The position numbers and the translations under genes were made by a program. Source: Thermoplasmata archaeon (GTDB lineage Archaea; Thermoplasmatota; Thermoplasmata; Thermoplasmatales; GCA-001856825). From it: DNA of 45,957 nucleotides. The first letter of the stretch is position 1; each line of letters opens with the position of its first letter. The notes below the pieces were generated by a model. That model worked only from the letters and a program-made list of their open reading frames with translations. It was not told where the DNA came from and ran no database searches. Location: NCBI GenBank assembly GCA_021827945.1, contig JAKATW010000141.1, forward strand, positions 1 through 45,957, written 5' to 3'. Of the stretch, positions 10,429-45,892 are shown piece after piece.

Positions 10429-10877
10429 ACGATCACCCCCGTAAAGATGAAAATTACACCAATTGCGCTTATCAGTATCATGAAAATCCCGAGTACGATC
10501 TTGAGGAGGTTGTTCAGTCCCCTCAACGACTTAGCCTTGTAAGGAAATTCTGGCCTGTAGGGCTTTGGAAGCATAAGGCCGTTCTCCACTATGGTGAGTC
10601 TTATTCCATTGAGGGCGTGGTAAACAGCCACAATCAGGATCAGCGAAAGTATGAACGGACCATAGTGCGCTCCAAACGGGTAATCAAGGTCGACCATTAT
10701 CTTGTCCCAGGTAACCTGACCGTTTAGAATGTTAGAGGTCTCCCACACGTGGGCTATAAGGTAGAGGCCCAGAGCAATCCCAGTCAATCTGTGGAGTGCG
10801 AACATCCATCTGTCCGTGCCGTACTTGAATGGGTTGAACCATGAAATCCATCCCTTTTTGTTTTCAATTGTCATCAT
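10425..10877 (-). CDS. sdhC: Succinate dehydrogenase cytochrome b subunit
   Basis: LHRLTG...YLIAH and YHALNGIR motifs; three TM helices; GAGGTGA ribosome-binding site. Confidence 0.9.
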   Translation of the reverse strand: MMTIENKKGWISWFNPFKYGTDRWMFALHRLTGIALGLYLIAHVWETSNILNGQVTWDKIMVDLDYPFGAHYGPFILSLILIVAVYHALNGIRLTIVENGLMLPKPYRPEFPYKAKSLRGLNNLLKIVLGIFMILISAIGVIFIFTGVIV

Positions 10878-12599: not shown

Positions 12600-12700
12600 A
12601 TAGATCTCCAGTGAGAAAGTGCATGACAATATAAAAATTCTCAGTTTTGCTATCTAAATTAAATTTAGTCCACTTAAACTGTATTTTAATGGAATAAAGA

Positions 12701-16094: not shown

Positions 16095-16199
16095 CAAATT
16101 TTACTTACTTTTGCTCAGTGTTTAAGGAGATATAAATTTTTAGAGGCATTAAGATTATTTCAACGTTCCTTATATCTTTAAAGCGGTACCCTCACCCCA

Positions 16200-27177: not shown

Positions 27178-30045
27178 TTAAGAATAGGACAGGTAGTCGT
27201 ACATCAGTACTCCGTCTCCGCCCACCATCACTCCATCCTGGTATGCTGTGACAGATGAAGGTGTCACGTGGGAATTTACCACCCAGAAGCCACCCACCTG
27301 GTATAGGTACACATAGAATGTCATGTTCACAAGCATTTCATTTTGCATATGGAAATATTTCAATGCGACGGTGGGGTCACCTGTAGTAGCTCCGGCCAAA
27401 TATTCACCGGCCATTGCAGTGAGGTTGTTGTACTGTTCCTTCATGCCAGCGAGACTGCTCACTGGATTCGACGTGTTGTTGAACCACGATGGGTAGAAAC
27501 CGCTTGCACCTGGGAAGAAGCTGACGCTGCTTGGATATGCCATTGGTCCCATGTAATCAGTTGGGTAGGGATAGTCCGGGCCCCAGTTCATCAGATATAT
27601 TGGTGCAGGATTCTGACCGGCAACCATCCAGCCCAGAAGGGTGGGGATAGACGTGGGAACAACCGGAGTCTGAATGCCAGGAATTATTTGAGCAAGATAT
27701 TGTCCCCAGGTAGTAGCTCCTTCCACATCAACTGGATCGGCTGTCCAGACAAAAACAGGAATATTGAGAACCGCTCCTTTGTAAAGTATGTTGCCGTTAG
27801 CTGCTACCGACAGGCCCTCCATGGAAAAGTATTGAGAATTCTCAAAAGATGTCCAATTCTTTTCTGCGCCAGTCATGTCGAATTGTGGCAAAGAGACTCC
27901 TGCCGATATAAGCGATTGGTTGCTCTGGTAGCCTAGCATACCGTTTGGTAACATGCCGGCATATCCCGTTCCAAATGTCGTGTTATAGACTTCGTTTCCG
28001 ATCTGCTGTGCCAGGTAGTAAGAGTAATCATAGGCGTCTGCGAATGCCCTCCTTACCTGTATACTGTCGAAGAACGTCTGGGGAACATTAGCAGTCGGAT
28101 AAGCTGCTGATAGCAGAGTCTCGTTTATCTGTACGTTGAAGTCGTAGTAATATATCGATATGGTTGGGAACGAATATACGTCTACAGTTCCAGATTTGCT
28201 GAGTCCCTGAATCTGGTACCATGCGCTAGATGGGAAGTCTTTGGCTACTTGGGCGTACCCGGACTTGAGCATCAGGTATTGGGTAGACTCCTGACCTATG
28301 TACTCTATGATGACCATCGGAATTTTTGCCTTCACAGCGAATCCGTTTCCTGGAGGATTATAGTTGGGGTTTGCAACCAGAACTGTTTCGGAAGCTGGTA
28401 CTGTATAGTCGATCATGTAAGGTCCTGAAGCCATCTCGTTGTTCACCAGGTACGAAATGTAGTCGCCCGCACTGGCGTGTGCCTGATAGGCCTCAAAGTC
28501 CGAAGCGTTCCATCCAATCCCCCCTCCATGTGTCTGCACCCAGGATGCCTCGGTAATGAAAGCTCCACTTGTATCCCCCAGCGTCTCAAAAACAAGGGAT
28601 GGTGCCATTGGTAGCTGGTAGTGTATCGTGATGTTGTTAGTCGCGTTGTTCCAAGTGATGTTTTGGGTTATGTTCCAGAAGGTGTTGGAAGAGTAGTAAT
28701 TACCTGGTAACATGTACTGGGCGTTTATCCAGCCCGGTGTTCCCGGAGCTCCATTATCATAGAGAAGAAGCCTGGTGAGCGAGAATGCCACATCCCATGC
28801 TGTTACCTTGTTCCCGTCTGCGAAAGTCGCGTTTGATCTGATATGAATTGTATAGTTCTCATATGGCTTTATTGTCACGTTATAGCTTCCACCATTATAT
28901 CCTGCTAACGTAGAGTTTACCTTTACGGTATAATTGGCCCAATTTGTATTGATCCCACCATTGGTAGTGGTAGGCATATATGCAGCTAAATAAGGGAAGA
29001 ACTCAGAAGAACTGCTGCCATTGTATCCGAACAGAGTAGCCATTGTATTGAACGAAATCTCGAGGCTGACTCCATCGTAAGTTACTGCAGGATCAAGGGT
29101 CTTGTATCCGCCCGTTTCGGCCTCTGCATTGACAAATGTCCCTACCCCACCAGTTGGTGCAGAAAATACCGACGCAGAACTGAACACCGGTATGTCCTGA
29201 TAGTATTCTGTATTGAAGATTCCACTGGCAGCGTTAACAGATCCTGAGGTTGAGTTCACTGCAGCGGTAAAAGTGGTCAGTTCAACCTGATAGTAGCCGG
29301 CTGATAGGGTCAGGTTATATAGTGCGTTTCCGGTGGAAAGTTCGTAGATTCCTGCTGATTCATTGAAATAATATGGAAGTGCAATCGTAGTCAGCACCGA
29401 ATCATTATGTGATACCGTCAAGGTCTGAGAAACGACCTGGTAGGTTGGATTTGCTGGTGGAGTGAAGTAAGCAAGAAGCAGTGATAGGGTAGTTCCAGGG
29501 GCATAAATCCAACTGTTGTTCACTATGGGTGAAGCGGAAGAGGACTCTAATGCTATATCTCCATAGGAATTAGTAGCCGGAAGGGCAGAAGACGACACAC
29601 TCACTCCGATAGGCAATAACTCTTTGTTGCTGGAATATGCATTACCTGTAAAATTCACCGTATAGTACAGGTAATAATTTCCCGGTGAATCGTAGATATG
29701 AGATACATTCAGGTAATCCGAACCAGAATAGGGAATCACCTGTGGTGATCCGTCTCCCCAGAACAGATTTGCGCTTGAGAACTTACCGTTAGTCTTTATT
29801 GAGAGGTTGTATGGTTTGTTGTACTGTGCAACTGCGCCCGAATTTGACGAAGTTATGCTTGCCGACGTCCCCACTGGCACCGTTGGAGTAGGATGATAGA
29901 AGGCTAGAACTCCGAAGGCTGCGATAATTACTACCAGAACGACAATTATCGCATACCACTTGGTGTTGCGAGATCCTTGTTTTTTAGGTAGCGTAGGTGT
30001 TGGAGGGGATGCGGGTTGTTGATTATCTTTTTGATTATCTGTCAT
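27178..30045 (-). CDS. Membrane-anchored family-5 ABC solute-binding protein with an N-terminal PKD-like domain
   Basis: N-terminal TM anchor, WGDGS...SHIYDSPG.Y (PKD), TLDPA..YD, FADG..VTAWDV.FS, SGPY, VRRAF..AYD, WGPDYPYP.DY; AGGAGG ribosome-binding site; many N-x-S/T sequons. Confidence 0.9.
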   Translation of the reverse strand: MTDNQKDNQQPASPPTPTLPKKQGSRNTKWYAIIVVLVVIIAAFGVLAFYHPTPTVPVGTSASITSSNSGAVAQYNKPYNLSIKTNGKFSSANLFWGDGSPQVIPYSGSDYLNVSHIYDSPGNYYLYYTVNFTGNAYSSNKELLPIGVSVSSSALPATNSYGDIALESSSASPIVNNSWIYAPGTTLSLLLAYFTPPANPTYQVVSQTLTVSHNDSVLTTIALPYYFNESAGIYELSTGNALYNLTLSAGYYQVELTTFTAAVNSTSGSVNAASGIFNTEYYQDIPVFSSASVFSAPTGGVGTFVNAEAETGGYKTLDPAVTYDGVSLEISFNTMATLFGYNGSSSSEFFPYLAAYMPTTTNGGINTNWANYTVKVNSTLAGYNGGSYNVTIKPYENYTIHIRSNATFADGNKVTAWDVAFSLTRLLLYDNGAPGTPGWINAQYMLPGNYYSSNTFWNITQNITWNNATNNITIHYQLPMAPSLVFETLGDTSGAFITEASWVQTHGGGIGWNASDFEAYQAHASAGDYISYLVNNEMASGPYMIDYTVPASETVLVANPNYNPPGNGFAVKAKIPMVIIEYIGQESTQYLMLKSGYAQVAKDFPSSAWYQIQGLSKSGTVDVYSFPTISIYYYDFNVQINETLLSAAYPTANVPQTFFDSIQVRRAFADAYDYSYYLAQQIGNEVYNTTFGTGYAGMLPNGMLGYQSNQSLISAGVSLPQFDMTGAEKNWTSFENSQYFSMEGLSVAANGNILYKGAVLNIPVFVWTADPVDVEGATTWGQYLAQIIPGIQTPVVPTSIPTLLGWMVAGQNPAPIYLMNWGPDYPYPTDYMGPMAYPSSVSFFPGASGFYPSWFNNTSNPVSSLAGMKEQYNNLTAMAGEYLAGATTGDPTVALKYFHMQNEMLVNMTFYVYLYQVGGFWVVNSHVTPSSVTAYQDGVMVGGDGVLMYDYLSYS

Positions 30046-33395: not shown

Positions 33396-34499
33396 ATGGG
33401 TAAGGATTATTACGCTGTACTGGGAGTAGATAGAAAGGCGTCCAAGGACGATATTAAGAAGGCATACAGGGACCTAGCAAAGAAGTACCATCCAGATCTG
33501 AACCCCCAGAACAAGAAAGAGGCAGAGGAAAAATTCAAAGAGATCAGCGAAGCATATGAAATCCTCATGGATGATCAGAAGAGGGCACGTTTCGATCAGT
33601 ACGGGGAGGAAGGAGTAAAGTTCCAGGGAGGATTTGACTGGAATCAGTTCCACCACTACCAGGATATCCAGGATATATTCGGAGACCTGTTCTCCCAGTT
33701 CGGTTTTGGGGGTGGAGGATTTGGGAACCCGTTCGGTGGGTTCTCGGGTCAGCAGAGGGAACTGAGGGGACAAGACGTTTACGTAGAGATTCCCATAGAC
33801 ATAAGGCGGATAGCGAGGGGCGAAAAGATCGAGGTGTACTACTTCAGGGAAATGAAGTGTGAAGAGTGCAATGGGACTGGCTCGTCAACAAAGAAGCTCC
33901 TGACATGCCCCACGTGCAGGGGACGCGGATACGTGGAGAGATCCTCCAATCAGGGGTTCATTGTCTTCAGGACCACTGAAGTCTGCAGGACATGCAATGG
34001 AAGGGGAAAGGTTCCAGAAAAGGTATGCCACGTCTGTTCAGGATCCGGATATACCAGAAAAAAGGACAAGATAGACATTTCACCGCCTCCTGGCATCCAT
34101 GAAGAAGAGGTTTACATACTGAGGGATAAGGGGAACTACAGACCCGGTGGCTCCGGAGACTTGAGAATAAAGTTTGACATCGATTACATGGAATTCAGAA
34201 GAGATAATGACGACCTGGAGAAGGACATTCAGGTAGACTTTATAGACGCCATTATGGGTGGAAAAGTAAAGGTCCAACTGTTGAGGGGAGAGAGGGAGGT
34301 GGACATACCAGCAGGGACTCAACCAGAGGAGAGAATAGTCCTGAAGGGAGAAGGTATCCAGAGGAAGAGCGGCAGGGCTAACGCTGACATAGTACTGAAG
34401 GCAAAGATAGCTCTTCCGAAGAAGATATCAAAGAAGCAGCGGGAGCTGCTCGAACAGTTCAAGAATGAGAAAGGTTTCTTTTCGCAGTTTCACTTGTGA
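33396..34499 (+). CDS. dnaJ: Co-chaperone DnaJ
   Basis: J domain with HPD, G/F-rich region, four CxxCxGxG repeats. Confidence 0.97.
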
Positions 34500-35188
34500 A
34501 TGGAGAAGTACATTCTCTTGTTATTCTTTCCCTTATTTTCGATCTTGTAAATCTCTATTTCGCCAACCTCAGAAGTGTTCTTGACATGAGTTCCGCCATC
34601 TGGCTGGATATCGATATCACCTATCCTGACAACGCGGAGAGTATCGGTTGAAGGAAGGAGTCGTAGATCGACCTTCAGTGCACCTTCCATTCTCAAGATT
34701 TCATCTCTCTTCATCGAGAGAACTGTCACTTCTTGATTTTTTCTAAGCTCTTCGTTGACCCTCGTCTGCAGTGACTTGGAAATTTCACTGTTCCAGTCTT
34801 TGAAATTGAAGTCTATCCGTGAGTAGTCTTGGTTTATCTGGTTACCAGTTATCATTGCTCCAAACTCCTTCATTGCTATAGATGATACAACATGAATTGC
34901 GGTATGTTGTCTCATGAGCAGGTAGCGTCTTTCCCAGTCGATTTTCAGCTTGACCTTCTCTCCCACTGTCGGCTGGAAATCTGTCCTATGCACAATCTCG
35001 TCCAGCTTGGTCACTTCCGTCACCTCATATTTTCTAGTCCCTTCCATTGTTCCAAGGTCGGATGGCTGTCCTCCGGATGCGGCATAGAATATGGTTCTGT
35101 CCAGTATCACTCCATCTCGAATCTCAAACACCTCCGCATCCAGTTCTCTAAGATATGAATCCTCGAGATATAGTTGAATTGTTTTCAT
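34490..35188 (-). CDS. alaX: Free-standing alanyl-tRNA editing protein AlaX (AlaX-M type)
   Basis: [42 protein letters not shown]; start re-called to ATG 35188. Confidence 0.9.
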
Positions 35189-35214
35189 CGTCCCACTTCT
35201 GTTGAAGACATAGG

Positions 35215-35784
35215 TCACTTATCTATGTAAAACCAGTTATTTTCCTCGCTCGCAAAGTCTTCCCTCTCCTTCTTCGTGGTCTTTCTCAGTGCGAACTCAC
35301 AGAAATTGTCACCATCGGGTATTGCCTTGAGGTGTTGCAGCTTATAATTGGGATTGTAGGACATATATTTTGCAATATCGACGTAGCAGTACATCCTTCC
35401 AAGGTGATCCAGGCCTAGCTCCTTCCAAGTTTTCGCTAGCACGCACCCATAAGCGGCCTCTCTCTTTTCACCGTCTTTCTCAAATTCCTCAACCTTATCA
35501 TGCATACCGAATTCAGGCAATCCATAATATCTGCCCTTGTCAAAGTTCTCTGGTCTATTGGTGAGTCCCATCTTCTCGACCTCTTCCCTTGTCTTCTCTC
35601 CGATTTTCCTGCCATATTCCTTGATTGCCTTGGAAATCACCTCTTCGCCCTTCTTCTCTCCAAGCTCCCTCACCAGAGTCTCTGCATACGCAAGGTGAAG
35701 CAACGCGATCCTTCTGCTAGTTATCGCAATGTCCTCCTTTGCCCTCTCAATATCGACACTTCTATTTTTGTTCACATCAAACAC
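35215..35784 (-). CDS. ATC-hydrolase-family / V4R-like protein of unknown function
   Basis: Helical N-terminus (LVRELG...G...I..AI..YG...G), then C.LA..W...G...LG..YC.VD.A....YNP...L.H......GD..CEF, the pattern of the L-2-amino-thiazoline-4-carboxylate hydrolase family. Confidence 0.75.
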   Translation of the reverse strand: MFDVNKNRSVDIERAKEDIAITSRRIALLHLAYAETLVRELGEKKGEEVISKAIKEYGRKIGEKTREEVEKMGLTNRPENFDKGRYYGLPEFGMHDKVEEFEKDGEKREAAYGCVLAKTWKELGLDHLGRMYCYVDIAKYMSYNPNYKLQHLKAIPDGDNFCEFALRKTTKKEREDFASEENNWFYIDK

Positions 35785-35788
35785 ATCC

Positions 35789-36121
35789 TTATTCTGACTC
35801 TCCCTTTCTGAGATAGACTAGATCCTTTACTACTTTTAAATTCTTTACTGGTTCAACAACTAGATCAGTATCAACTTTCGTTTGACAGGCTAGTGATACC
35901 TTTCCGTTAACCGACACTGTACAATTGCTGCATATACCAATCTTGCAAGCGGTATGGCTATAATAAGAAATGGTACTGTCAAGGTTCTCATAGATATAAT
36001 CAAGAGCATCCAATACTGACATTCCTTCCTGTAGTGGTATTTGATAACTCTGGTAATTTGTCTTAGATCCGTGGGAATTTTCATTTCTGGCAATTTTAAT
36101 CGTAACCAATTTCTTTTCCAT
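35789..36121 (-). CDS. [2Fe-2S] ferredoxin corresponding to the SdhB N-terminal domain only
   Basis: GMSVLDALDYI.E.LD, CKIGICSNC...NG...LACQT, VVKDLV and then a stop; no 4Fe-4S/3Fe-4S domain; AGGTGA site before ATG 36121. Confidence 0.88.
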   Translation of the reverse strand: MEKKLVTIKIARNENSHGSKTNYQSYQIPLQEGMSVLDALDYIYENLDSTISYYSHTACKIGICSNCTVSVNGKVSLACQTKVDTDLVVEPVKNLKVVKDLVYLRKGESE

Positions 36122-36133
36122 TTTATTCACCTA

Positions 36134-37906
36134 TCAGTGTGCCCCTGGGGTGTCAGAGTGAGATTTCATCATCATCTTCATCATATCAAAATAGGGGAGT
36201 TTCCCTTCAGGTGGTCTTATACTGTCAAAATCCACAGACCTTGTTTCTGTCTTGAAACTATTCTTGTCCCTTTTGAATATGATCTCCTTTAACCAATTGT
36301 CATTGTCAGTGATTGGAATATCGGATCTATAATGAACTCCTCTGCTTTCTGTCCTTATCAAGGCTGCATTAGCAGATAATTCCAAGATGGTCAGTATATT
36401 CTCCAGCTCCAGAATTTCAATCAATTCCTTATTGTACTTGAGGGAAGAAACATCCTGTAGACAAGTGTGTCTATACTCTTCCTTCGCATTCTCTATGAAT
36501 TCTAGGTATTCTTCCAGTCCCTTTTCCGTCCTTATGGGTCCCAAATTACTGTATGTTTCCGTCTGAATTCGCTTCAAAAGACTAGATGGTTTATTCCCCC
36601 CCCTCCTAGAGAGAATACCATCGATTTTCTTCTCGAATTCCTGAATCTGATTTTGATCCAACTCCTTGAACTCTTTTCCATTTGCATAAGTAGCTGCACT
36701 TCCACCTGCAATTGCGCCTTCAACAAGCATTTCTGTGGTCGCAGCAACCACCCTATTTGCTCCAAAAATGCTCATGGTCGCTTCGCCTGCTGCAAAAAGT
36801 CCATTGAGAGTAGATGAGAATTTTTCATCGATAACAATTCCACCTTCAAAATACTCAGCAGATGGCCCAACCTCTACCCCGGAACCATGTACTAATTTAT
36901 CTTTCAGATTTGAAAAATCTGTGCCCTTGTATCTCCATTTCGGATAGATTTTCTCAACATTGGCGAATGCTTTCTCTTTTGAAACACCTTTCAGCGTGTA
37001 GAGGATGCTAGAGTGAGTAGTACCATTCCCATTGAGGATCTCTTGGTAAGTAGCAATAGATACGAAACTCTTGTTCCACTCCGTCGATGTTCCAATCTTT
37101 ACTACTTCTGGGTCATACGCGTCTAGAAACCTTTCATTTTTAGTATTAACAAGCTCTCCTCCCACCATGGAGTGAAGTATGTATGTGAAAATACTTCCAT
37201 TCCAGATAGGCGGCCAATGAGTAACGTTACAACAGAAAGTCACAAATTCCATATTTCCAAGAGAGGCTCCAGCTCTATAGGCTATTGCAAGACCATCGCC
37301 TGCAAGCTCACGTGAACCTGCATTGTATATGTAAGCTTTGTGCCAGCCCCCTGTTGCTATGACCACCGCCTTGGCCTTGAATATAATGAACTCTCCTGTC
37401 AGTACTCTTAGACCTATACCACCAGAAACTGTCCCCCTTGAAGTTAACAGTTCCAAGAACATGACATCGTTGATAAGCTTCACATTCAGCTCCTCGGCTT
37501 TCTTCAGCAGAGTGTGGGTGATGTTGAATCCTTCAGTGTCAATTGCGCGTTCCTCATCATAGTCCACTCTCATCCCCCAATCTATCAATTCCTCGACCAC
37601 CTTTGGTGCATCTTCTACATATCTCTTCACTAATTTCTGATTTCCTAAGAAGTAGCTCTGAGTTATAATATCGTTGAAGAATTTCTCCTTGTTGTCGGTT
37701 ACTACTCCCTTGAAACCTAGCTCGTTTAGACTCTTTCCGTCAAGAGTTAGGTCTGCTCCTGCCATAGGTGATGCCCCACATTTGGCGGCTTCTCCCTTAC
37801 TTATGAGGATAACCCTTGACCCATGATCTCCTGCTTCAATGGCTGCTCGTAAACCCGCACCTCCTCCTCCTACGACGAGGACATCAGCTTCAAGTGTGGA
37901 AGACAT
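36134..37906 (-). CDS. SdhA/FrdA/NadB-superfamily flavoprotein with a non-canonical active site
   Basis: GGGGAG, ATGG, GDG...AYRAGA..GNMEF, GLFAAGE, GANR and ESRGVHYR.D.P are retained; the covalent-FAD His and dicarboxylate motifs are altered (see findings). Confidence 0.9.
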   Translation of the reverse strand: MSSTLEADVLVVGGGGAGLRAAIEAGDHGSRVILISKGEAAKCGASPMAGADLTLDGKSLNELGFKGVVTDNKEKFFNDIITQSYFLGNQKLVKRYVEDAPKVVEELIDWGMRVDYDEERAIDTEGFNITHTLLKKAEELNVKLINDVMFLELLTSRGTVSGGIGLRVLTGEFIIFKAKAVVIATGGWHKAYIYNAGSRELAGDGLAIAYRAGASLGNMEFVTFCCNVTHWPPIWNGSIFTYILHSMVGGELVNTKNERFLDAYDPEVVKIGTSTEWNKSFVSIATYQEILNGNGTTHSSILYTLKGVSKEKAFANVEKIYPKWRYKGTDFSNLKDKLVHGSGVEVGPSAEYFEGGIVIDEKFSSTLNGLFAAGEATMSIFGANRVVAATTEMLVEGAIAGGSAATYANGKEFKELDQNQIQEFEKKIDGILSRRGGNKPSSLLKRIQTETYSNLGPIRTEKGLEEYLEFIENAKEEYRHTCLQDVSSLKYNKELIEILELENILTILELSANAALIRTESRGVHYRSDIPITDNDNWLKEIIFKRDKNSFKTETRSVDFDSIRPPEGKLPYFDMMKMMMKSHSDTPGAH

Positions 37907-37918
37907 TTTCAAGATTTA

Positions 37919-39340
37919 TCACTTTCCTGCCGACGCCTTCTCAATTTCTAAGGGTTTGTCCGTCAGTATCTTCTTTCTGTTTATATAAGTGAAGATTATT
38001 CCAAATACCACCCAGATAGGAATAACATAGTAGACTAGAGAAATCGGCCAAGCCAGACCTAGAACGGAATAATAGCCACCAATCAAGAAGAGTATCGATG
38101 ATATCGTAGGTACAATAATGTGTGGAAGAATCTTTAATTCAGTCAAACGCCTGTAGAGGAAAGCAAGAGTCTGATTGACTATTAGATGATACAGCCACCA
38201 GAGGACGGACAGGAAGGTTCCGAACAAAAGCCACGCGTAAAACGTTCCATCATTCATTCCATAGAAGTGTACAAAGACTATCAAAGATAAAACCGTCAAG
38301 ACAACGGTAAAGGTGAAAATTGTCAATACTGCGACATACGGACTTTTGTACTTCGGATGTACTCGAGACAGAGACTCCGGTAACACTCTATCTCTCGATA
38401 GGGAAAGGAATATTCTTGCAGTTTGTGAGCCATTAAAAACTGGCGCCATTATTTGAGCAATTTCAATGACGATGAACGAGACTAATAGTACACCGCCGCC
38501 CAAGTATTTCTCCGTGAAGTAAAATCCTGGTGAAAAATAGGAAAGCGCAGTACTTAGGGAGGAACCAGCAATTGAAACTACAGAGTAAACTTCAAGAATT
38601 TCAATTCCAATAATTATTACGGCAGCTGCAACAATAGCATTCTTTATAGTCCTGAACGGAGTTTTTGTTTCCTCTCCGAACATTACTATCCCACCGTAAC
38701 CAGAATAACTCATGAATCCACCAACTACTACTGCTGTGAAGAAACCAGAGAGACCCCCCCAGGAGTTTCCAATGTTGAAATATGATATATTGTTGTTAGG
38801 GCTTATCGCTATCAGGGCTATGCTAATTGCCCCAAAAATCGCAATTTCGAACATTGATATAATAATGGCTAGATTGCCGCCGACCGACACAGACCTGTAA
38901 CCAACAACCAGATAGAGTACCGGTCCTATTAATGATGCAAGAATGACCACGTAAAGTGGAAGAGAAATGTTGAAGAGTGCCATCAGGGCAGACCAAAGTA
39001 ACCAACCCCCCAATATGCTAGTAAATGGCATCGCGCTTGACATGTACAAGATCTGTAGGAATCCCACTGTTTTACTAAAGTATTTGTTTGGAACACTCCT
39101 TTCAACGAATTTGTAATAACCTCCAGGTGTTGCAACCTTCTTGCTGTAATAATAAACTGAGACTATAGCAGCAAGCAACATTATTCCCCCGATCAAGAAA
39201 GCCATTGGAGCAACTGGGCCGGAATAAGCCATTGCAGTTGACCCGGTGATTGCAAAAGCTGAAGCTGGGAACATAACAGCTACTGCCCAAAAAACCAGCT
39301 GCCAAAAAGACAGACCACTTCTATTAAGTTCATTGGTCAT
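37919..39340 (-). CDS. APC-superfamily amino acid/amine permease
   Basis: About 12 TM helices, GGYY.FV, SYSGYGG...GEETK.P, ARI...SRD.VLP...SRVHPKYKSPY; ATG 39340 lies about 23 bp from a TATA box. Confidence 0.9.
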   Translation of the reverse strand: MTNELNRSGLSFWQLVFWAVAVMFPASAFAITGSTAMAYSGPVAPMAFLIGGIMLLAAIVSVYYYSKKVATPGGYYKFVERSVPNKYFSKTVGFLQILYMSSAMPFTSILGGWLLWSALMALFNISLPLYVVILASLIGPVLYLVVGYRSVSVGGNLAIIISMFEIAIFGAISIALIAISPNNNISYFNIGNSWGGLSGFFTAVVVGGFMSYSGYGGIVMFGEETKTPFRTIKNAIVAAAVIIIGIEILEVYSVVSIAGSSLSTALSYFSPGFYFTEKYLGGGVLLVSFIVIEIAQIMAPVFNGSQTARIFLSLSRDRVLPESLSRVHPKYKSPYVAVLTIFTFTVVLTVLSLIVFVHFYGMNDGTFYAWLLFGTFLSVLWWLYHLIVNQTLAFLYRRLTELKILPHIIVPTISSILFLIGGYYSVLGLAWPISLVYYVIPIWVVFGIIFTYINRKKILTDKPLEIEKASAGK

Positions 39341-39377
39341 AGTATATATCAAACTGTCTTTATAATTAGTCTTATTT

Positions 39378-39391
39378 TCTTACATGTAAGA
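39378..39391. promoter_or_regulatory. Perfect 14-bp palindrome TCTTACATGTAAGA, candidate operator
   Basis: Self-complementary; just upstream of the minus-strand TATA (TTATAAAG, 39358-39365) of the permease operon. Confidence 0.6.
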
Positions 39392-39740
39392 TGGTGCACT
39401 TCAATATAATTGAACAAAAATGACGTGAGATACATCAGAATAATCTCAATTAAGTGCTTTCAAACTACCTGACAGCTCTAAGATTTGAAACATATGTCCA
39501 ATGAAACTGGTAGCGATTAAGTCTTCCAAAATACTCCTAGAACTCAGAAAGTGAACTTTATGTAAATATTTCGAATTTTGTGGTGGTCCGGTTCTACCAT
39601 TTTATTCCACTCTCCATCTAGAAATGATTTTAATTCGGAAAATGTTTTTAAGATTGGTGAAAATACTGAATGTTATTTATTCAAATAACCTCAATGCAGA
39701 AAATTTAACTATAAGTAATAGATCGATTACTGCGATCTAG

Positions 39741-40442
39741 ATGTTTTACCGACTCCATTTATTGATTGAGCATAGCGAAGACTGGTCAATGCTGTGCAAG
39801 GAATTTGATGTTTCTGCAAAACCTCTACTCTATTTCCTTGCTAATATTAATGGAAGTTACGTGCGCGCTGAACTTACCAAAATTAGTTGTAATCATGACG
39901 AGTGCAAGGATGGATATTATCTGGATCAATTTGTGTACAAAGTCAAGAAGAACAAAGAAGTCTATGGAGTAGTATATTTTAATAGAGAAGACAGACATTT
40001 CAATAAGATCAGGTACATCCTCACCCTCGAAGACTACAGTTCATCAATAAGAAAACTTATCAATGATCGCCTTGGATTTTTTATCTCGACTAAAGGACAT
40101 AAGAACCTCGAGGAATTCACAGTACTATTCCCATTCGGTCGCAGAACGGAATTTGAAGAGCTCAGAGATCAACTCGACGAGATGGGAACGGTACACCTAT
40201 TTGATGTCACAAAAGTGAGCGATACGGTACTTCCTACTTATCCCCGTCTGACTCAAAGGGAAACTGAAGTGATGCAAACAGCCTGGTCCAGTGGTTATTT
40301 CAATTATCCTAAGAATATCAACCTTGAGGAGATGGCAAGAGACATGAGCATTAAAAGATCTACCCTAGATTATCATTTGCGTGAAGGTGTTAAGAAGTCC
40401 ATACAATTTCTTATTGACACGGGAATGTATGAGTGGCAATAA
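39741..40442 (+). CDS. Bat/HTH-10-type archaeal transcription regulator
   Basis: C-terminal LTQRE.EV...A...GYF.YPK...LEE.A..M.I..STL.YHLR...KK; divergent from the permease operon. Confidence 0.9.
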   Translation: MFYRLHLLIEHSEDWSMLCKEFDVSAKPLLYFLANINGSYVRAELTKISCNHDECKDGYYLDQFVYKVKKNKEVYGVVYFNREDRHFNKIRYILTLEDYSSSIRKLINDRLGFFISTKGHKNLEEFTVLFPFGRRTEFEELRDQLDEMGTVHLFDVTKVSDTVLPTYPRLTQRETEVMQTAWSSGYFNYPKNINLEEMARDMSIKRSTLDYHLREGVKKSIQFLIDTGMYEWQ

Positions 40443-40488
40443 TTCTCAAATGATTTTTGATGAGAACTCAATCGAATGGCTCTCCAGT

Positions 40489-41385
40489 TCATAAACCAAT
40501 GAATGGGATTAGAATTGATAACAAGGCTATAATCACAAAAAAGATTCCGATGAATATGTTGGTTGAAACGAAGAGTTTCATGATGCGCTTATCTGGGTCC
40601 ACCAGAGCCCTAAGATAAGATGTCAATAGAGAGAGTCCCAGAAGCACATAGATCGCGAAGACCCCGATTCCCACGTAGAAGGTAAAATAAGACCTGAATT
40701 CGAACCCGGTCAGAATCGTGACAATTACTGCCAGCAATGCAATTGGGAAGAGTATCCGCATAGACTGTTTTGTCGTACGGTTCACGGGGAGCATCGGGAC
40801 AGACGCTGCTGCATAGTCCTCCCTGTATTTGATAGAGAGGGACCAGATGTGGAGAGGGGTCCATATAAATATTGTCAGGAACATCAAGAATGCGACTACA
40901 TTGTATGAAGATGTAAATGCATAGAAACCTGCAAGTAGAGGAGCTCCCCCTGAGTACGCTCCCAGTATAATGTTCCAGGAGGTTCTCTTTTTTGAAATTA
41001 GGGAATATATTATCACGTAGTCGAAAATGCCGCTTGCCATAAATGCGAAGGACCAGAAGGATCTAAAAATCGCCATGACGAGTGTTGCGGTAATAAGGAT
41101 AAGGCCACCATAGAGTGCTATACTTGGCTTCATCCTTCCTGATGGGAGTGCTCTGTTCATCGTTCTCTTCATCTTCTTGTCAATGGATAGATCGAAATAG
41201 TTAGATATCGACTCGGCCCCCATCAGTCCCAGTGCGATGTACACCGCCACATAGAGAAATCCAATCAGATCAAGACTCCTATGTATGCTGAGGGCGAACA
41301 CTTCACCAGCAATTCCTGTTATCAGGAGAAACACCCAGACTCGTGGTTTTGTCATGATTATGAAATCGCTGACGAAATTTCCCAT
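40489..41385 (-). CDS. ctaB: Protoheme IX farnesyltransferase (heme O synthase)
   Basis: TKPRV, D..ID..M.RT.NR.LPSG, KKRT..NI..G..SG, WTP.H.W.L...Y.EDY..A.VPMLP. Confidence 0.93.
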   Translation of the reverse strand: MGNFVSDFIIMTKPRVWVFLLITGIAGEVFALSIHRSLDLIGFLYVAVYIALGLMGAESISNYFDLSIDKKMKRTMNRALPSGRMKPSIALYGGLILITATLVMAIFRSFWSFAFMASGIFDYVIIYSLISKKRTSWNIILGAYSGGAPLLAGFYAFTSSYNVVAFLMFLTIFIWTPLHIWSLSIKYREDYAAASVPMLPVNRTTKQSMRILFPIALLAVIVTILTGFEFRSYFTFYVGIGVFAIYVLLGLSLLTSYLRALVDPDKRIMKLFVSTNIFIGIFFVIIALLSILIPFIGL

Positions 41386-41757: not shown

Positions 41758-41829
41758 GGGCTGGTAGATCAGTGGAAGATCGCCTCCTTGGCATGGAGGA
41801 GGCCCGGGGTTCAAATCCCCGCCAGTCCA
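41758..41829 (+). tRNA. tRNA-Ala(GGC)
   Basis: Cloverleaf: acceptor GGGCTGG/CCAGTCC with G3.U70, D stem GATC/GATC, anticodon arm CCTCC-TTGGCAT-GGAGG, T arm CGGGG-TTCAAAT-CCCCG, discriminator A; CCA not encoded; no intron. Confidence 0.97.
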
Positions 41830-42704
41830 TTGACAATGTCGTAGGATTTGGGGGATTTGAACATTTTATCCTCTTTGAATAGTTTCGGGTTTTGGTCGTG
41901 CATTCGTCTTATGGCCTCTGCTGAGTCCAGTTTTGTATAGATGGCTGTTGTATCGAGTCTCTCGTGGCCTAGCATTTGACTGATGGTTTGAAGGTCCATG
42001 TTTTCCATGACCAGTTTAACGGCATATGTGTGACGGCATCTATGCCACTTGAAGCCTTTAACTCCTGTTCTCTCCCGGATCCTCTTGGAAAGGTTCTCCA
42101 TGTAAGACGAGGTTATCTTTCCCTTCCTGGTTGTAAATACGTAATTCAAGTTCTGGTGATTCCTTAAGGGTAGCCATTTTCTTATGCTCTCAAATGTGAA
42201 GGAATCAAGGTAAACATCCCTATTCTCCTCGCCTTTCCCCCTCTCAACTGTCAAATAGTTCTCATGAATATCCTTGACTTTCAAGTTGGCGATCTCGCTT
42301 GCCCTCAATCCTGTGTTGAGTGCAAGGATAATCATCGTATGGTCCCTGTTGTCTTCCAGGGTTTCACCTTTCGATCTTTCAAGTAATAGCTTTACCTCAT
42401 TGGCATCGTACCTATTTATGGTGAATTTCTTTTTTGTTCCTGGAATATACTCAAAAGTATCCCATCCCCTGAATAGTATCCACCTGTTAAGGTACTTAAT
42501 ATATCCGTTGATCTTCTGCTTAGTGGCCCCCATTCTTCTCGCTTCCTTAAGAAACTCGTGGACACTCTCTCTATTTTCCAAGTCTATGGATTTGGAAAAG
42601 AAACGGATCTTCCTAACAGCATCTTCAATGGTTGAAGCAGAGAAGTTACGTCCATACATCCAGTCCTCGAATTCAATCAATTTATTCTCAATATTTTCGT
42701 TCAT
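41811..42704 (-). CDS. int: Tyrosine recombinase/integrase
   Basis: Catalytic residues R (TGLRASE), K (RGKG), HxxR (HRCRH), H (LGH) and Y (TTAIY). Confidence 0.95.
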   Translation of the reverse strand: MNENIENKLIEFEDWMYGRNFSASTIEDAVRKIRFFSKSIDLENRESVHEFLKEARRMGATKQKINGYIKYLNRWILFRGWDTFEYIPGTKKKFTINRYDANEVKLLLERSKGETLEDNRDHTMIILALNTGLRASEIANLKVKDIHENYLTVERGKGEENRDVYLDSFTFESIRKWLPLRNHQNLNYVFTTRKGKITSSYMENLSKRIRERTGVKGFKWHRCRHTYAVKLVMENMDLQTISQMLGHERLDTTAIYTKLDSAEAIRRMHDQNPKLFKEDKMFKSPKSYDIVNGLAGI

Positions 42705-42853
42705 AACTTAAATCCCCCATTCGTATCCAAATCAACCAAAGTCGTAATGCACAATCTGACGGCATGAGATCGATTTGCTGCTTTTCCCCTTTTAACGAGA
42801 TCATCTAGGAAGGAATTCTGTTCATCCGCTATAGAGATACTAATTTTTATCAT
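42701..42853 (-). CDS. Ribbon-helix-helix DNA-binding protein coupled to the integrase
   Basis: MIKISISI.DE...FLD.LV..G...NRSHAVR..I; ATGA overlap with int; ATG 42853 preferred over 42889. Confidence 0.85.
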   Translation of the reverse strand: MIKISISIADEQNSFLDDLVKRGKAANRSHAVRLCITTLVDLDTNGGFKL

Positions 42854-42855
42854 AC

Positions 42856-42925
42856 TACTTTCACCTACTTTAGTATACACTACTGGCATAAATAACTTCC
42901 TACTTTTCCTTACTTATACTTACTT
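42856..42925. repeat. TACTT direct repeats with 10-bp phasing between the divergent RHH genes
   Basis: TACTT at 42856, 42866, 42901, 42911, 42917 and 42921; TACTG at 42881. Confidence 0.65.
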
Positions 42926-42969
42926 TTAAGCAGAAAGACGCTTAAACCAATATTTCTTCCTCCTCCGTA

Positions 42970-43146
42970 ATGAAAATTAAAGTGTCTGTTTCGATTGATG
43001 AGGAGCTTTTAGAATGGGTTGAAGTGGAGGTAGATAAGAAAAGGTTTGCCTCTGTTTCACACGCTGTGAACTTTGCGTTGAATGGTTTAAAAAAAGAATC
43101 CGGTCTGGGTGGCGTCAAGCGGCAGACGAAAGAGAAAGATAAGTAA
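42970..43146 (+). CDS. Second ribbon-helix-helix protein (58 aa)
   Basis: Not in the ORF track. MKIKVSVSIDEELLEWVEVEVDKKRFASVSHAVNFALNGLKKESGLGGVKRQTKEKDK*. Confidence 0.85.
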   Translation: MKIKVSVSIDEELLEWVEVEVDKKRFASVSHAVNFALNGLKKESGLGGVKRQTKEKDK

Positions 43147-43147
43147 T

Positions 43148-43339
43148 ATGACTTCTCAAAATAAGTGTTTCTTGATCTCTCCTGCTGGAGAAAAGAGTTC
43201 AGCAACTAGAAATAGATTAGACGATCTCATGAATTACACCACAAGGCCCGTGATGGAAGGACTCGAAATTAAACTGGAAAGAGCCAGTAAACTGGCGGAG
43301 AGGGGGAAGAAGGAAGGTCGGTTAAGTGACTCAAATTAA
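43148..43339 (+). pseudogene. Short ORF resembling the N-terminus of nucleoside-2-deoxyribosyltransferase-like/TIR-like proteins; probable fragment
   Basis: MTSQNKCFLISPAGEKSSATRNRLDDLMNYTTRPVMEGLEIKLERASKLAERG resembles the recalled pattern CFVI.PIG...S..R.R.D......I.P.......V.RAD....PG; stops after 63 aa. Confidence 0.45.
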
Positions 43340-44090
43340 AATCGGAAATCAAATCAGCGAACTCAGCTGCCTCAATTCTAAAGTAGACAAATATGCTTGT
43401 TATGAAGTTACAAACGGCAACATTGACTTTGAGTATATTGACCTTGTCTGTGACTCGCAACATTTTGCAAGATTCAGCGTCGAAAAGACAGGAAGTGACG
43501 GAGATATTACCCTAAAAGTAGGGCAGGAACAGAAAGTCCTTTCGATCTTCGTGGACAATTATAGGGCGACCGTATTGTCATTTCGTTCGTTAGATCAAGA
43601 ACAGTTTTGGCAATTTATCGGATTTGTTTCTATTAAGCATGCATATGGTGCTGCTACAGCGATCAGAGTATTGATTGAAGATTTTTTGAAATTAAATTAC
43701 TTATCGCCAGGTATTATCAAATATCTAGGAAAGAGAAATTTAAAGAAACTATATATGAAGGTGGAAAAGGACAAGACTGATCTTGCTTCAGAAGCAGTTA
43801 TGATGATAACTGTTAAGAATCTGTTTTTAACACTGATGGGTATAGATCCAAAAAGTAATGGATTAAGGGGTCACATAAACGATACCTTAAAGAAATTTTA
43901 CAGGAGTAGAGCAACGAAAAATCGACGGTTTAAGAAAGAACAATGGGAGAAGCTTAAACTTGTCTACGACACGTCTTCGAAAATTATTCATGGTCAGCAA
44001 TACGATGCATATCAACTTTTTAATGAAGTTAATGGAATTTTTGAGATTTTTAAAGAGTATTCAGAGAAAGAAGGGAAGTGGACCCAATGA
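43326..44090 (+). CDS. Hypothetical protein with a C-terminal HEPN-like helical domain
   Basis: 254-aa ORF; C-terminal LKLVYDTSSKIIHG resembles the HEPN Y..RS.IVHG motif with Arg replaced by Ser. Confidence 0.55.
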   Translation: MTQIKIGNQISELSCLNSKVDKYACYEVTNGNIDFEYIDLVCDSQHFARFSVEKTGSDGDITLKVGQEQKVLSIFVDNYRATVLSFRSLDQEQFWQFIGFVSIKHAYGAATAIRVLIEDFLKLNYLSPGIIKYLGKRNLKKLYMKVEKDKTDLASEAVMMITVKNLFLTLMGIDPKSNGLRGHINDTLKKFYRSRATKNRRFKKEQWEKLKLVYDTSSKIIHGQQYDAYQLFNEVNGIFEIFKEYSEKEGKWTQ

Positions 44091-45892
44091 GTGATAAAGA
44101 ATCTGAAGAAGTTCTTCTGGATTCAATCTCGCTACAGGTAGCAGCTCAAGTTATAAAGCACATCTCTGCAGGACTCTATAGGAGCCCGGGCAGCTCCATA
44201 AAGGAACTAATTAGCAACTCCTTTGACGCGTGTGCAACAGAAGTGAATGTAGATTTCTATCTCGGAACATTTAAGTCTACTCAGTTTGAATTCGAGAAAA
44301 TTGTTATTAGAGATAATGGGGCTGGAATGACCCTCGACACTCTCTACGAAGTTTTTACTCACATTGGCAGTAGTGGAAAAGATAAGCCTTCGACATCAGA
44401 AAACCCAGATTGCAAATTGAGGCCGATCATTGGTAGAATGGGAATTGGTATGCTTTCTGTTGCATCTGCATGTACTGGATTCGTCGTTAGAACCAAGAAA
44501 AGAGGCGAACAAAAAGAGTATACAGCTAAGATATCGTTGTCATTTTTCAAAGATAGAATACAGAGATCAGAATCTATGGACAAATCTAAGTTAGGTAATG
44601 TTGAGCTTTATTCCAGAGATGTGAACAATGACGAAAGCTATACAGAAATAGAGATAAGTGAATTCACTCCTCCTTTTCTTGAGAACATAGTGCCCACTCT
44701 TAGCACTTCTTACTTATATAACTACATAAGAGGGAAAGAAAGCTACGAAGAATACTTTGAGCTCTTTGTATATAACGTTCAACAGCAAGGAAAGCTCGCA
44801 AACGTGGCAGTGATTGATAAGTTGATTGCAGATGTTGGCACCATGGCTCCGGTTGAATATTTACCAGACGGACCAGTAAGAAAAATCATAAAACTAAACG
44901 GAAAAGAGTATCAAATACCAGGGACGGACACAAAGGAGTACGATCAATTACGTAATAAACCAAAATCATTCAATTTTAATGTCATTGCTAATATCTACGT
45001 CAAAGGTCTTGACGGTAGATCAAGGCTAAGGAATTCTTTCAAAATATACAAACCGTTCATTTATCCCGTATTAGAAGATGTGACAGATTCGGTCGATTTC
45101 GAAGACCTTGATCCATATGTTTATTTACTTCCACCAAGAGATGACAAGGTCCTAAACGATGACGGTGTTTATGAAGAAACTTCAGTTAGAGGTTACTACT
45201 ACCACCAAAATAAGAGAATTCAACCAAGCGAATTTAGCGGGCTTCTGTATCGAGTATTCAACGTAGCGCTAGGCAATGAATTTGGAGACCCGATGAAGTT
45301 CTTTGTCGACGCCTATTTGGTATTTCAGCAATCGTTTGTTGAAGTTTACTTGGACAAAGGATTTCAACAAATCGTCAACCTGGATCGAGAAGGCCTGTTT
45401 GAAGGCAGTAACATGTACAGATACTTGCGAAACTACCTTGTTAACACAATCAGAGGGGACGCTCCACCAAAACCTGCCCCGTCAAAGCCCGAAACTTCAA
45501 AGGAGGAACAGGAAAAGCAATTTCAACAAGACCAAAATCAAACCTTTAAAGATAACAAAAGAGACGCGATAGTTCCAAAAGTGAAAAGAAGAAGGAGCAA
45601 TACAAGAAAAGCCAAGATAGAAAAGAGAAGTGAGCAGGTTGAACAGCGGCTACTTGATGATTTCGGTGCCCAAATTTTGACCAAGGAAAGAACCGATGAG
45701 GTTAAGGAAATGAGGGTAGAAATTGAAGGAGATGAGTTAATCGCTTATATTCCAAAATTCCAAAAGAGGAAAGAGCTTTGGGACCTTTTATGCATAGGCG
45801 TCATAGCGAATACGAGAGACGACAATAAAATAAAGGAAAAACTTGTAAAATTTATACTTGACCTATATGAAGAAGTAGAAGTTGGGAAGTGA
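44087..45892 (+). CDS. GHKL (MORC/Hsp90-like) ATPase
   Basis: LY.SP..SIKELISNSFDA, IRDNGAGM, F..IGSS.K, IGRMGIGMLS, later NLDREG; ATG 44087 overlaps the upstream stop (ATGA); ORF track starts at GTG 44078. Confidence 0.88.
   Translation: MSDKESEEVLLDSISLQVAAQVIKHISAGLYRSPGSSIKELISNSFDACATEVNVDFYLGTFKSTQFEFEKIVIRDNGAGMTLDTLYEVFTHIGSSGKDKPSTSENPDCKLRPIIGRMGIGMLSVASACTGFVVRTKKRGEQKEYTAKISLSFFKDRIQRSESMDKSKLGNVELYSRDVNNDESYTEIEISEFTPPFLENIVPTLSTSYLYNYIRGKESYEEYFELFVYNVQQQGKLANVAVIDKLIADVGTMAPVEYLPDGPVRKIIKLNGKEYQIPGTDTKEYDQLRNKPKSFNFNVIANIYVKGLDGRSRLRNSFKIYKPFIYPVLEDVTDSVDFEDLDPYVYLLPPRDDKVLNDDGVYEETSVRGYYYHQNKRIQPSEFSGLLYRVFNVALGNEFGDPMKFFVDAYLVFQQSFVEVYLDKGFQQIVNLDREGLFEGSNMYRYLRNYLVNTIRGDAPPKPAPSKPETSKEEQEKQFQQDQNQTFKDNKRDAIVPKVKRRRSNTRKAKIEKRSEQVEQRLLDDFGAQILTKERTDEVKEMRVEIEGDELIAYIPKFQKRKELWDLLCIGVIANTRDDNKIKEKLVKFILDLYEEVEVGK

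Follow-up and report, generated by a model that had tools for sequence, protein, structure and literature searches.

What does a flavoprotein with the fold of succinate dehydrogenase (SDH) and fumarate reductase (FRD) do when most of the residues that bind dicarboxylates have been replaced? The question is raised by a gene at positions 36134..37906 (minus strand) of a contig from a Thermoplasmata archaeon (GenBank assembly GCA_021827945.1, contig JAKATW010000141.1; the whole stretch of 45,957 nucleotides that we analyzed is referred to as the window). Its product is a FAD subunit of the SdhA/FrdA fold, made up of a FAD_binding_2 and a Succ_DH_flav_C domain. An earlier note, drawn from the sequence alone, had described it as the third SdhA paralogue, which is apt for the window, where two canonical SdhAs are present, but not for the genome as a whole, in which further FAD_binding_2 genes exist. 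We favor, at a probability of roughly 0.6, the reading that the gene encodes part of a soluble FAD/[2Fe-2S] oxidoreductase of two to three components that has the SdhA fold, does not work on succinate or fumarate, takes as its substrate a monocarboxylate that is imported and is probably an amino or imino acid, and was acquired as a cassette. The invariant Lys in the active site, the partners (a [2Fe-2S]-only and an ATC_hydrolase-like protein), the breadth of the family and the apparent horizontal acquisition of the cassette, all described below, go beyond what the earlier note contained.

The reading frame is free of stop codons from 36134 to 37912 (minus strand) and yields 592 amino acids (aa) from a TTG. 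The ATG at 37906, two codons further in (590 aa), is the likelier start, since the database copy P0002 (590 aa) and the Atlas record both begin at that Met; residue numbers of the flavoprotein are counted throughout from the TTG at 37912. Pfam assigns 148.5 bits to FAD_binding_2 and 87.5 bits to Succ_DH_flav_C. An AF2 model made with 24 homologues (pLDDT 83.6, pTM 0.89) has its top Foldseek matches in Sdh1 of M. smegmatis (7d6v_A, TM 0.83) and FrdA of E. coli (5vpn_A, TM 0.81; range 0.80-0.83), with NadB and AprA ranking below SdhA/FrdA, as NadB does also in the HMMER matches to the sequences of known structures. Set against the curated NCBIfam models, the protein stays under the cut-off of all 25 that were listed: it scores 270.7 bits vs 567.3 for TIGR01812 (SdhA/FrdA), 291 vs 718 for NF004900 (TfrA), 170.9 vs 452.75 for TIGR00551 (NadB), 106.6 vs 557 for NF005331 (the adenosine phosphosulfate (APS)/phosphoadenosine phosphosulfate (PAPS) reductase AprA), and only 100 vs 285 for TIGR01813. 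The two true SdhAs of the window, with which it shares 31-33% identity, served as a control and pass TIGR01812 with 735.2 and 585.8 bits. Protein Atlas provides only generic ‘FAD-binding protein’ clusters for the flavoprotein, and no longer, fused form of it was found at E <= 1e-60 among proteins of 1037-2960 aa, which is weak evidence.

We are highly confident that the flavoprotein is a member of an uncharacterised clade that has its own partner proteins and is distinct from SDH and FRD. Besides the gene's own cluster, the 119 nearest clusters (P0003-P0121) are 47-73% identical to it and 538-620 aa long, and the hosts of homologues comprise archaea (Culexarchaeia, Bathyarchaeia, Nitrososphaerota) as well as bacteria (Anaerolineae, Desulfatiglandales, and others). 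Genome loci were collected by scanning one genome of each species for a motif, whereby 146 pattern matches led to 116 relatives, 80 of which were kept; a further 28 loci came from metagenomes. Our alignment of 216 sequences unites the query and the proteins P0003-P0121 with those loci that cover the model from position <=30 to >=540, which are 74 from the genomes (of 80) and 22 from the metagenomes (of 28); these sets may overlap. The motifs that mark the clade, GA[ST]xxAGAD, GGWHKA, TF(CC)N, Y244, TEWNK, AEYF[ED]GG, and FGANR, are all found in the query, and each key residue except the CC pair occurs in at least 210 of the 216 sequences. Being almost fixed, the replacement residues are a family signature rather than the outcome of chance drift. 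A full-text literature search, with subscription journals mostly outside its coverage, returned no paper on the family or on a module of flavoprotein, 2Fe-2S, and ATC_hydrolase proteins; PMC13416013 deals with a PCMH-type flavoprotein, which is unrelated.

Active-site residues were mapped by sequence alignment, using a HMMER alignment to 5vpn_A (E. coli FrdA E245Q) along with MAFFT three-way and 26-sequence alignments. Because the Gln of E245Q pairs with Y244 of the query, the chain index of 5vpn_A equals the literature number plus 1. In FrdA, H44 makes the covalent link to FAD (8-alpha-N3-histidyl) and the other residues compared here bind carboxylates or, as R287, shuttle protons. All six motif changes quoted in the earlier note are present in the flavoprotein, the canonical versions being carried by the two other SdhAs of the window, and the alignments likewise show the loss that it had reported of the covalent-FAD His and of most dicarboxylate residues (three of the four His/Arg). 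The segment of the covalent His is replaced by CGASPMAGAD (residues 45-54; 37751..37780, minus strand), with A53 aligned to H44 and no His in any of the 24 aligned members (24/24). A longer, family-specific loop (GADLTLDG...) begins in this segment; its D54 (216/216) and D58 (206/216) are conserved, and residues 48-61 have a pLDDT <50 in the AF2 model. In place of QFHPTG, which holds H232 of FrdA, the alignments put TFCCNV (residues 225-230; 37223..37240, minus strand), where H232 falls on N229 according to HMMER or on C227 according to MAFFT. T225 (215/216) and N229 (201/216) are well kept, and the CC pair, to which the earlier note had drawn attention, proves variable (C227 in 191/216 and C228 in 180/216), with Ala or Ile as substitutes at the first position and Pro, Ala, Asn, or Ser at the second.

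The capping-domain pair Thr-Glu (T244-E245 of FrdA) becomes T243-Y244 in the HMMER alignment to 5vpn_A (37181..37186, minus strand), at the head of TYILHSMVGG (residues 243-252), with Y244 in 214/216. At the position of the proton-shuttle Arg (R287 of FrdA), MAFFT and HMMER agree on K281 within TEWNKS (residues 277-282; 37067..37084, minus strand). Thus the catalytic Arg is gone, as had been noted, but the position is not empty, since a Lys occupies it in 216/216 sequences. E278 and W279 (both 215/216) lie within an insertion of five residues; relative to SdhA, the capping region has this insertion and a deletion of 17 residues. In AEYFEGG (residues 352-358; 36839..36859, minus strand), E353 takes the place of H355 of FrdA and is found in 210/216 sequences, the other six having His; F355 is kept in 215/216, and position 356 is Glu in 112 and Asp in 102 of 216. 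Of the new Glu residues that the earlier note had pointed out, E353 therefore stands as a Glu, while the second is either Glu or Asp. Finally, R387 in FGANRVVAAT (residues 383-392; 36737..36766, minus strand) corresponds to R390 of FrdA and is the sole carboxylate-binding Arg that is retained, in 216/216 and just as had been proposed, with F383 (215/216) standing in for the His that precedes it. The FAD motifs GxGxxG, ATGG, and GLFAAGE show no change of residue in the family or in either of the true SdhAs of the window. Since the linkage segment has no His, the flavin is expected to be bound non-covalently, which is also what the earlier note had anticipated.

The flavoprotein ends in a Met/His-rich tail, PYFDMMKMMMKSHSDTPGAH (36137..36196, minus strand), which is specific to the family and closes on a conserved His. 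Its pattern reads ...PY.[DE]MMK.MM..HSD.GG[HK]H, with the terminal H592 in 201/216 sequences. The tail is present in 60 of the 77 flavoprotein frames at the genome loci, missing in a divergent subclade that makes up the remaining 17 of 77, and absent from the two SdhAs of the window. From its composition it looks like a metal-binding or active-site-plugging element. A tie between the tail and the ATC-like partner was considered and rejected, as the tail occurs in 51 of the 64 frames with that partner and in 9 of the 13 without it.

One member of the clade carries an internal stop codon. At L039:6256-6258, in Sporomusa acidovorans DSM 3132 (gene at ~6001-7779, plus strand), an in-frame TGA interrupts the reading frame between DIVTQG and YLNNQ. 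The column is Cys in 31 of 216 sequences, including the nearest relative (L050), and Phe, Tyr, or Trp in most others; in the window it is Tyr87. The TGA could stand for selenocysteine, a nonsense mutation, or a sequencing error, and no SECIS-like hairpin was seen 3' of it (z = -0.66).

Directly downstream of the flavoprotein gene lies its small partner (35789..36130, minus strand), an iron-sulfur subunit of 113 aa that consists of the N-terminal [2Fe-2S] domain of SdhB alone (Fer2_3, 86.6 bits, residues 10-106; Fer2_4 matches weakly with 29.2 bits). Pfam finds no Fer4 match in it, i.e. the domain for the 4Fe-4S and 3Fe-4S clusters is missing, and the NCBIfam dhsB model is matched at profile positions 1-97 of 222 only. 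The TfrB model NF004898 gives 85.9 bits vs a cut-off of 385, over profile positions 2-96 of 488. The Cys ligands C62, C67, C70, and C82 are invariant in 28 sequences. Partners at the 80 genome loci were counted by hidden Markov model (HMM) and six-frame analysis within a range of 3.5 kb: a 2Fe-2S domain accompanies the flavoprotein gene at 74 of these loci, and at 23 of the 28 metagenome loci. Among the six genome loci without it, four have a contig that ends <=109 nt past the flavoprotein gene. No Sdh_cyt, Fer4, or CCG protein and no membrane anchor are encoded in the cassette. A label of ‘succinate dehydrogenase’, against which the earlier note had warned, would indeed be wrong, as the defining residues, the curated cut-offs, and the set of subunits all fail. 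Such labels do mislead in practice: at the Joint Genome Institute (JGI), many homologues go by the name ‘succinate dehydrogenase/fumarate reductase flavoprotein subunit’, while NCBI mostly uses ‘FAD-binding protein’.

The next gene (35215..35784, minus strand), in the order flavoprotein, iron-sulfur subunit, ATC-like protein, encodes 189 aa of the ATC_hydrolase family (PF14196, 65 bits vs a cut-off of 28.1). It has no curated NCBIfam match, and a sequence search of the PDB brought nothing meaningful (best E 0.027). Five residues, C114, C133, D136, H151, and C162, are invariant in 30 sequences and look like a metal site. In an AF2 model of high confidence (pLDDT 94.6), VIA-align finds likenesses over 117-156 residues to DmpR (Z 8.8), Bet3 (8.6), PoxR (7.8), and the V4R protein MJ1460 (5.5), a Z of ~8 being borderline; Foldseek returns Bet3/TRAPPC3, MopR, and V4R at TM 0.41-0.50 with E from 1e-3 to 1e-1, none at E <= 0.001. 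This signal, though borderline, is consistent with a predicted fold of the V4R/Bet3/phenol-sensor kind, and in phenol sensors of the DmpR type the Cys-rich site holds a structural zinc.

An ATC-like domain is encoded within the same range at 61 of the 80 genome loci and 21 of the 28 metagenome loci, where the three genes are usually contiguous in the order given. At 13 of the 80 genome loci it is fused with the 2Fe-2S domain in one open reading frame (ORF), the ATC-like part being C-terminal, and P0137 from Bathyarchaeia (60% identity) is a separate fusion that involves the ATC subtype of the window (PF14196 + PF13085). Repeated, independent fusions support, indirectly, a physical association between the ATC-like protein and the iron-sulfur subunit, and the ATC-like protein is probably the third component of a putative complex with the flavoprotein and the 2Fe-2S protein. 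A different arrangement was seen in a Desulfobacterota locus (L009:4564-5601, plus strand), where a protein of 345 aa upstream of the flavoprotein gene has two tandem ATC_hydrolase-like domains, one of each subtype.

These three genes are part of an insert of 5,228 bp with five genes (35215..40442), placed between the genes for heme O synthase (40489-41385, minus strand) and AlaXM (34490-35218, minus strand). The minus-strand operon starts with an amino-acid-type permease of the APC superfamily (37919..39352, minus strand; 477 aa; AA_permease 49.4 bits, AA_permease_2 39.9 bits), whose stop codon is 12 nt ahead of the ATG of the flavoprotein, and continues with the flavoprotein, iron-sulfur, and ATC-like genes, followed by alaXM. 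A search of the PDB with the permease gave no match; a permease of 55% identity adjoins the flavoprotein gene at two of the 80 genome loci (L049 and L052). The fifth gene, divergently oriented, encodes a regulator of 233 aa (39741..40442, plus strand; HTH_10, 57.6 bits, residues 170-219).

In all five genomes of the same genus that were examined, dnaJ, alaXM, and the heme O synthase gene abut and the insert is missing, and the GC fraction of the insert is 0.409 vs 0.475 for positions 1-35214. At E <= 1e-100 the flavoprotein was found only in the source genome, both among 41 relatives and among 401 genomes across the phylum (0 of the 261 high-quality ones). The assembly is not chimeric, because single contigs from runs X9 (8,135 nt) and X10 (7,955 nt) of another study, covering 33653-41385 and 33833-41385 of the window, span both junctions. 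They differ from the window at 61 and 60 positions. Among the differences listed (23 more exist), five are in the flavoprotein gene, three of them synonymous and two conservative (D->E, A->T), and both of those in the permease gene are synonymous. About 30 of the differences listed are packed into a stretch of alaXM (34691-34944, 250 nt), and the adjacent cassette of 5.2 kb has only seven; strains thus appear to differ far less in the cassette than in its flank, as might be expected after a recent spread or recombination. Sequencing datasets that hold DNA of the cassette are metagenomes from mine drainage, mine tailings, and sediment, with no RNA dataset listed among them. We infer that the five genes form a cassette for catabolism that came in by horizontal transfer.

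Signs of mobility were also seen elsewhere. In one metagenome locus (L092:251-7047), the trio and a fragment of an MFS transporter lie between two similar DDE_Tnp_1 genes of 335 aa each on opposite strands, an arrangement that suggests a composite transposon and a trio that is mobile in other hosts too. The right end of the window (41811-45892) has a low GC fraction of 0.36-0.42 and encodes a XerA-type tyrosine recombinase (41811-42704, minus strand), an unassigned ORF of 254 aa (43326-44090, plus strand), and a HATPase_c_3 protein of 604 aa (44078-45892, plus strand) with a weak match to restriction enzymes of the BbrUII/HgiDII type. It is possibly an integrated element beside the cassette; in two congeners, partial matches to a recombinase occur at the corresponding location.

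As for the remainder of the window, the first SDH set is a complete sdhA-C-D-B cluster (10884-12629, 10425-10877, 10027-10428, and 9222-10025, all on the minus strand), and the second is an sdhA/sdhB pair (14370-16097 and 13621-14433, minus strand). Directly downstream of this pair, an ORF of 239 aa (12905-13624, minus strand), which has no Pfam or NCBIfam match, may be a so far unrecognised anchor or accessory subunit of the second SDH-like complex. The genome also holds FAD_binding_2 genes that are shorter and belong to the flavocytochrome-c type. L118 and L119, the two other full-length members, were considered as NadB and rejected, because they too are of this type. An SBP_bac_5 solute-binding protein (27178-30045, minus strand) is unusually long with 955 aa; its domain is confined to residues 397-839 and is preceded by a large, unassigned N-terminal extension.

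To see in which company the flavoprotein gene is found, ORFs of the 80 genome loci were clustered and the cluster representatives named. The most frequent neighbors are SDH_alpha-type proteins, i.e. serine/cysteine dehydratase-like (21/80 loci), and M24 proteins of the creatinase/prolidase type (13/80), next to regulators of the MarR (12/80) and GntR (11/80) families. M20 amidohydrolases appear as two clusters (10 and 5 of 80), Amidohydro_2 proteins at 6/80, and aminotransferases again as two clusters (4 and 4 of 80). Transport is represented by LIV-type binding proteins (8/80) and permeases (5/80), Opp-type binding proteins (7/80) and permeases (7 and 6 of 80), and TRAP systems (4/80); molybdopterin oxidoreductases and acyl-CoA ligases each occur at 5/80 loci. 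The locus of Sporomusa acidovorans (L039) comprises MarR, ATC-like, MFS, flavoprotein, iron-sulfur subunit, nitroreductase-like, M20, RidA, and SDH_alpha. Metagenome loci of archaeal type contribute LIV ABC, TRAP, and MFS transporters, an APC permease accompanied by an S15 X-Pro dipeptidyl peptidase, and also M20, SDH_alpha, an enolase-superfamily gene, and an AstE-type deacylase. What these neighbors have in common is that they would take up and trim amino acids, peptides, or N-acyl amino acids.

The oxidoreductase that we favor would work as follows. The permease would bring in a monocarboxylate, whose single carboxylate would be held by R387 and whose cationic nitrogen would be held by E353, E278, and the acidic residue (Glu or Asp) at 356. 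With K281 as base, a hydride would pass to N5 of a non-covalent FAD, presumably of lower potential, so that a C-N bond would be oxidised to an imine, a chemistry similar to that of NadB on a substrate with one carboxylate. Electrons would then travel from FAD to the [2Fe-2S] cluster and on to a soluble acceptor (or, in the other direction, come from a soluble donor). The ATC-like protein with its three Cys could either hydrolyse the product, an imine or cyclic imine, or bind the substrate. A monocarboxylate bearing a cationic amine, which the earlier note had also put forward, is plausible because one carboxylate-binding Arg is kept and the acidic E278, E353, and E/D356 are gained; and an amino-acid-like substrate is plausible because the APC permease is co-transcribed and homologues have transporters for amino acids and peptides, peptidases, and amidohydrolases as their neighbors. 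Taken by itself, the assignment of an amino or imino acid as substrate is tentative, and we would put it somewhat short of an even chance.

Several observations weigh against the favored reading. The near-invariant, family-specific H191 of the GGWHKA motif (215/216; W190, 214/216) is a candidate for a His supplied from elsewhere in the fold, and R524, H527, and R529, which are common to SdhA, may likewise supply His/Arg functions from other positions. Fifteen of the 80 loci have a 2Fe-2S gene and no detectable ATC-like domain within 3.5 kb, so that a third component is not universal. The NCBIfam matches of the permease are all weak and far under the cut-off, and its family points to no substrate. 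The neighborhoods are heterogeneous, with many types of transporters, CoA ligases, molybdopterin oxidoreductases, and enolase-superfamily genes, and hence imply no single pathway. Moreover, much of the bacterial context stems from a subfamily with Cys87 and a fused FeS-ATC protein, whereas the subfamily of the window has Tyr87 and a separate ATC-like protein. Lastly, many hosts are anaerobes, and the enzyme could work in either direction, as a dehydrogenase or as a reductase.

One alternative we regard as unlikely, though worth weighing: an enoate-type reductase or dehydrogenase of a C=C bond in a nitrogen-free or heteroaromatic monocarboxylate, resembling the urocanate, acrylate, and methacrylate reductases, with the [2Fe-2S] subunit feeding electrons in. 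An enoate site for one carboxylate would be expected to lack the covalent His while keeping one carboxylate-binding Arg and a basic residue in the place of the proton shuttle, as is the case here; a non-covalent flavin favors reduction, as in FrdA and Fcc3; many hosts are strict anaerobes (Desulfobacterota, Anaerolineae, Sporomusa); and CoA ligases or molybdopterin oxidoreductases are encoded at some loci. However, the known soluble enzymes of this type are short, of the flavocytochrome-c type, and without Succ_DH_flav_C; the present protein scores only 100 vs 285 bits for TIGR01813. The host of the window, with complex I, SDH, and heme O synthase, has an aerobic set of genes, the transporter of the cassette is of the amino-acid type, and three new invariant acids would ill suit an anionic or neutral substrate. 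Slightly less unlikely, and still a minority view, is that the ATC-like protein is no hydrolase but a metal or iron-sulfur electron-transfer subunit that replaces the C-terminal cluster domain of SdhB. Its fusion to the C-terminus of the 2Fe-2S domain (13/80 loci and P0137) puts it just where SdhB has the cluster domain, and three invariant Cys with an Asp and a His could bind a cluster. Against this view, its predicted fold resembles the ligand-binding domains of V4R, Bet3, and phenol sensors rather than a ferredoxin (borderline, best Z 8.8), the related phenol sensors use their Cys-rich site for structural zinc, neither Fer4 nor any other iron-sulfur Pfam model matches, the protein is missing at 15/80 loci, and the namesake of the family is a hydrolase according to its Pfam description.

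That the enzyme still acts on succinate or fumarate, with the lost residues supplied from other positions of the fold, seems very improbable to us. In its favor, the fold is nearest to Sdh1 and FrdA, the top NCBIfam matches are the TfrA and SdhA/FrdA models, and the family-specific H191 and the shared ESRGxHxRxD motif are at hand. But five of the six defining residues are replaced by invariant ones, with three acids where the second carboxylate should bind, every curated cut-off is missed where the two true SdhAs of the window pass, the partner retains just one of three clusters, an anchor is absent, and two complete sets of SDH genes are already present in the genome. A degenerating, non-functional paralogue of the SdhAs in the window is harder still to credit. 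The key catalytic residues are gone and the identity is only 31-33%, as might be expected of decay; yet the gene is not a local duplicate, as it sits in an insert that is absent from congeners, its relatives at 47-73% identity conserve length and motifs across archaea and bacteria, the reading frame has no interruption, and the FAD motifs are preserved.

A comparison with known systems sets the soluble FAD/[2Fe-2S] oxidoreductase that we favor in perspective. With SdhA/FrdA (1kf6/5vpn; 7d6v) the flavoprotein shares both Pfam domains, the fold, the FAD motifs, and the Arg equivalent to R390, as well as the pairing with a homologue of the N-terminal [2Fe-2S] domain of SdhB. It differs in having no covalent His, in the change of H232, E245, R287, and H355 to Cys/Asn, Tyr, Lys, and Glu, in the Met/His tail, in a partner without the domain for the 4Fe-4S and 3Fe-4S clusters, and in the lack of a membrane anchor. 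NadB (1chu, 2e5v) belongs to the same superfamily, is soluble, and has non-covalent FAD; since it oxidises the C-N bond of an amino acid, it is the best mechanistic analogue for the favored reading, although it retains the His/Arg set for dicarboxylates and has no iron-sulfur partner. The thiol:fumarate reductase TfrAB of methanogens, which is archaeal, soluble, and free of a quinone anchor, provides the top NCBIfam model for both the flavoprotein and the small subunit; the TfrB profile, however, extends over 488 positions, far beyond a 2Fe-2S domain, and the fumarate-binding residues are absent here. In HcnABC and in the heterotetrameric opine and D-hydroxyproline dehydrogenases, a flavoprotein that oxidises C-N bonds passes electrons to a [2Fe-2S] subunit of ~100 aa. 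These enzymes would work alike if the favored reading is right; their flavoproteins are of the DAO/Pyr_redox type and no homology is claimed. AtcB, the L-2-amino-thiazoline-4-carboxylate hydrolase, shares PF14196 with the third protein, without implying activity on that substrate here, and differs in that the ATC-like gene of the clade is tied to a redox enzyme and at times fused with a 2Fe-2S domain.

A more specific version of the favored reading, in which the three proteins make up an enzyme of a new kind, is offered as a long shot. The substrate would be a cyclic imino acid such as proline or thiazolidine-4-carboxylate; the flavoprotein would oxidise its C-N bond in a reaction that needs no oxygen, delivering electrons to the lone [2Fe-2S] cluster, and a zinc ATC_hydrolase docked on the iron-sulfur subunit would open the ring of the resulting cyclic imine or thiazoline. 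The ring-opened product could then be taken up by acyl-amino-acid amidohydrolases, RidA, and proteins of the Ser/Cys dehydratase type, such as those encoded near the Sporomusa gene (M20, RidA, SDH_alpha). Should this hold, no earlier C-N dehydrogenase of the complex II superfamily would have been linked to an iron-sulfur protein, and the ATC_hydrolase family would gain its first physiological context.

The flavoproteins of the complex II superfamily use one fold for few chemistries (succinate/fumarate, aspartate, and APS). Since homologues of the protein described here are labelled as SDH/FRD in metagenomes, calls of a TCA cycle or of fumarate respiration are inflated, in uncultured archaea and in sulfate reducers. 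The compact cassette of five genes, with its regulator, transporter, and three enzyme parts, is a ready unit for heterologous expression and for the discovery of the substrate. In a clade that spans bacteria and archaea, the substrate site has been rewired, the covalent flavin and two of the three clusters have been dropped, and a partner of the ATC_hydrolase family has been recruited; the complex II superfamily would thereby gain a chemistry and an arrangement of subunits that are both new to it.

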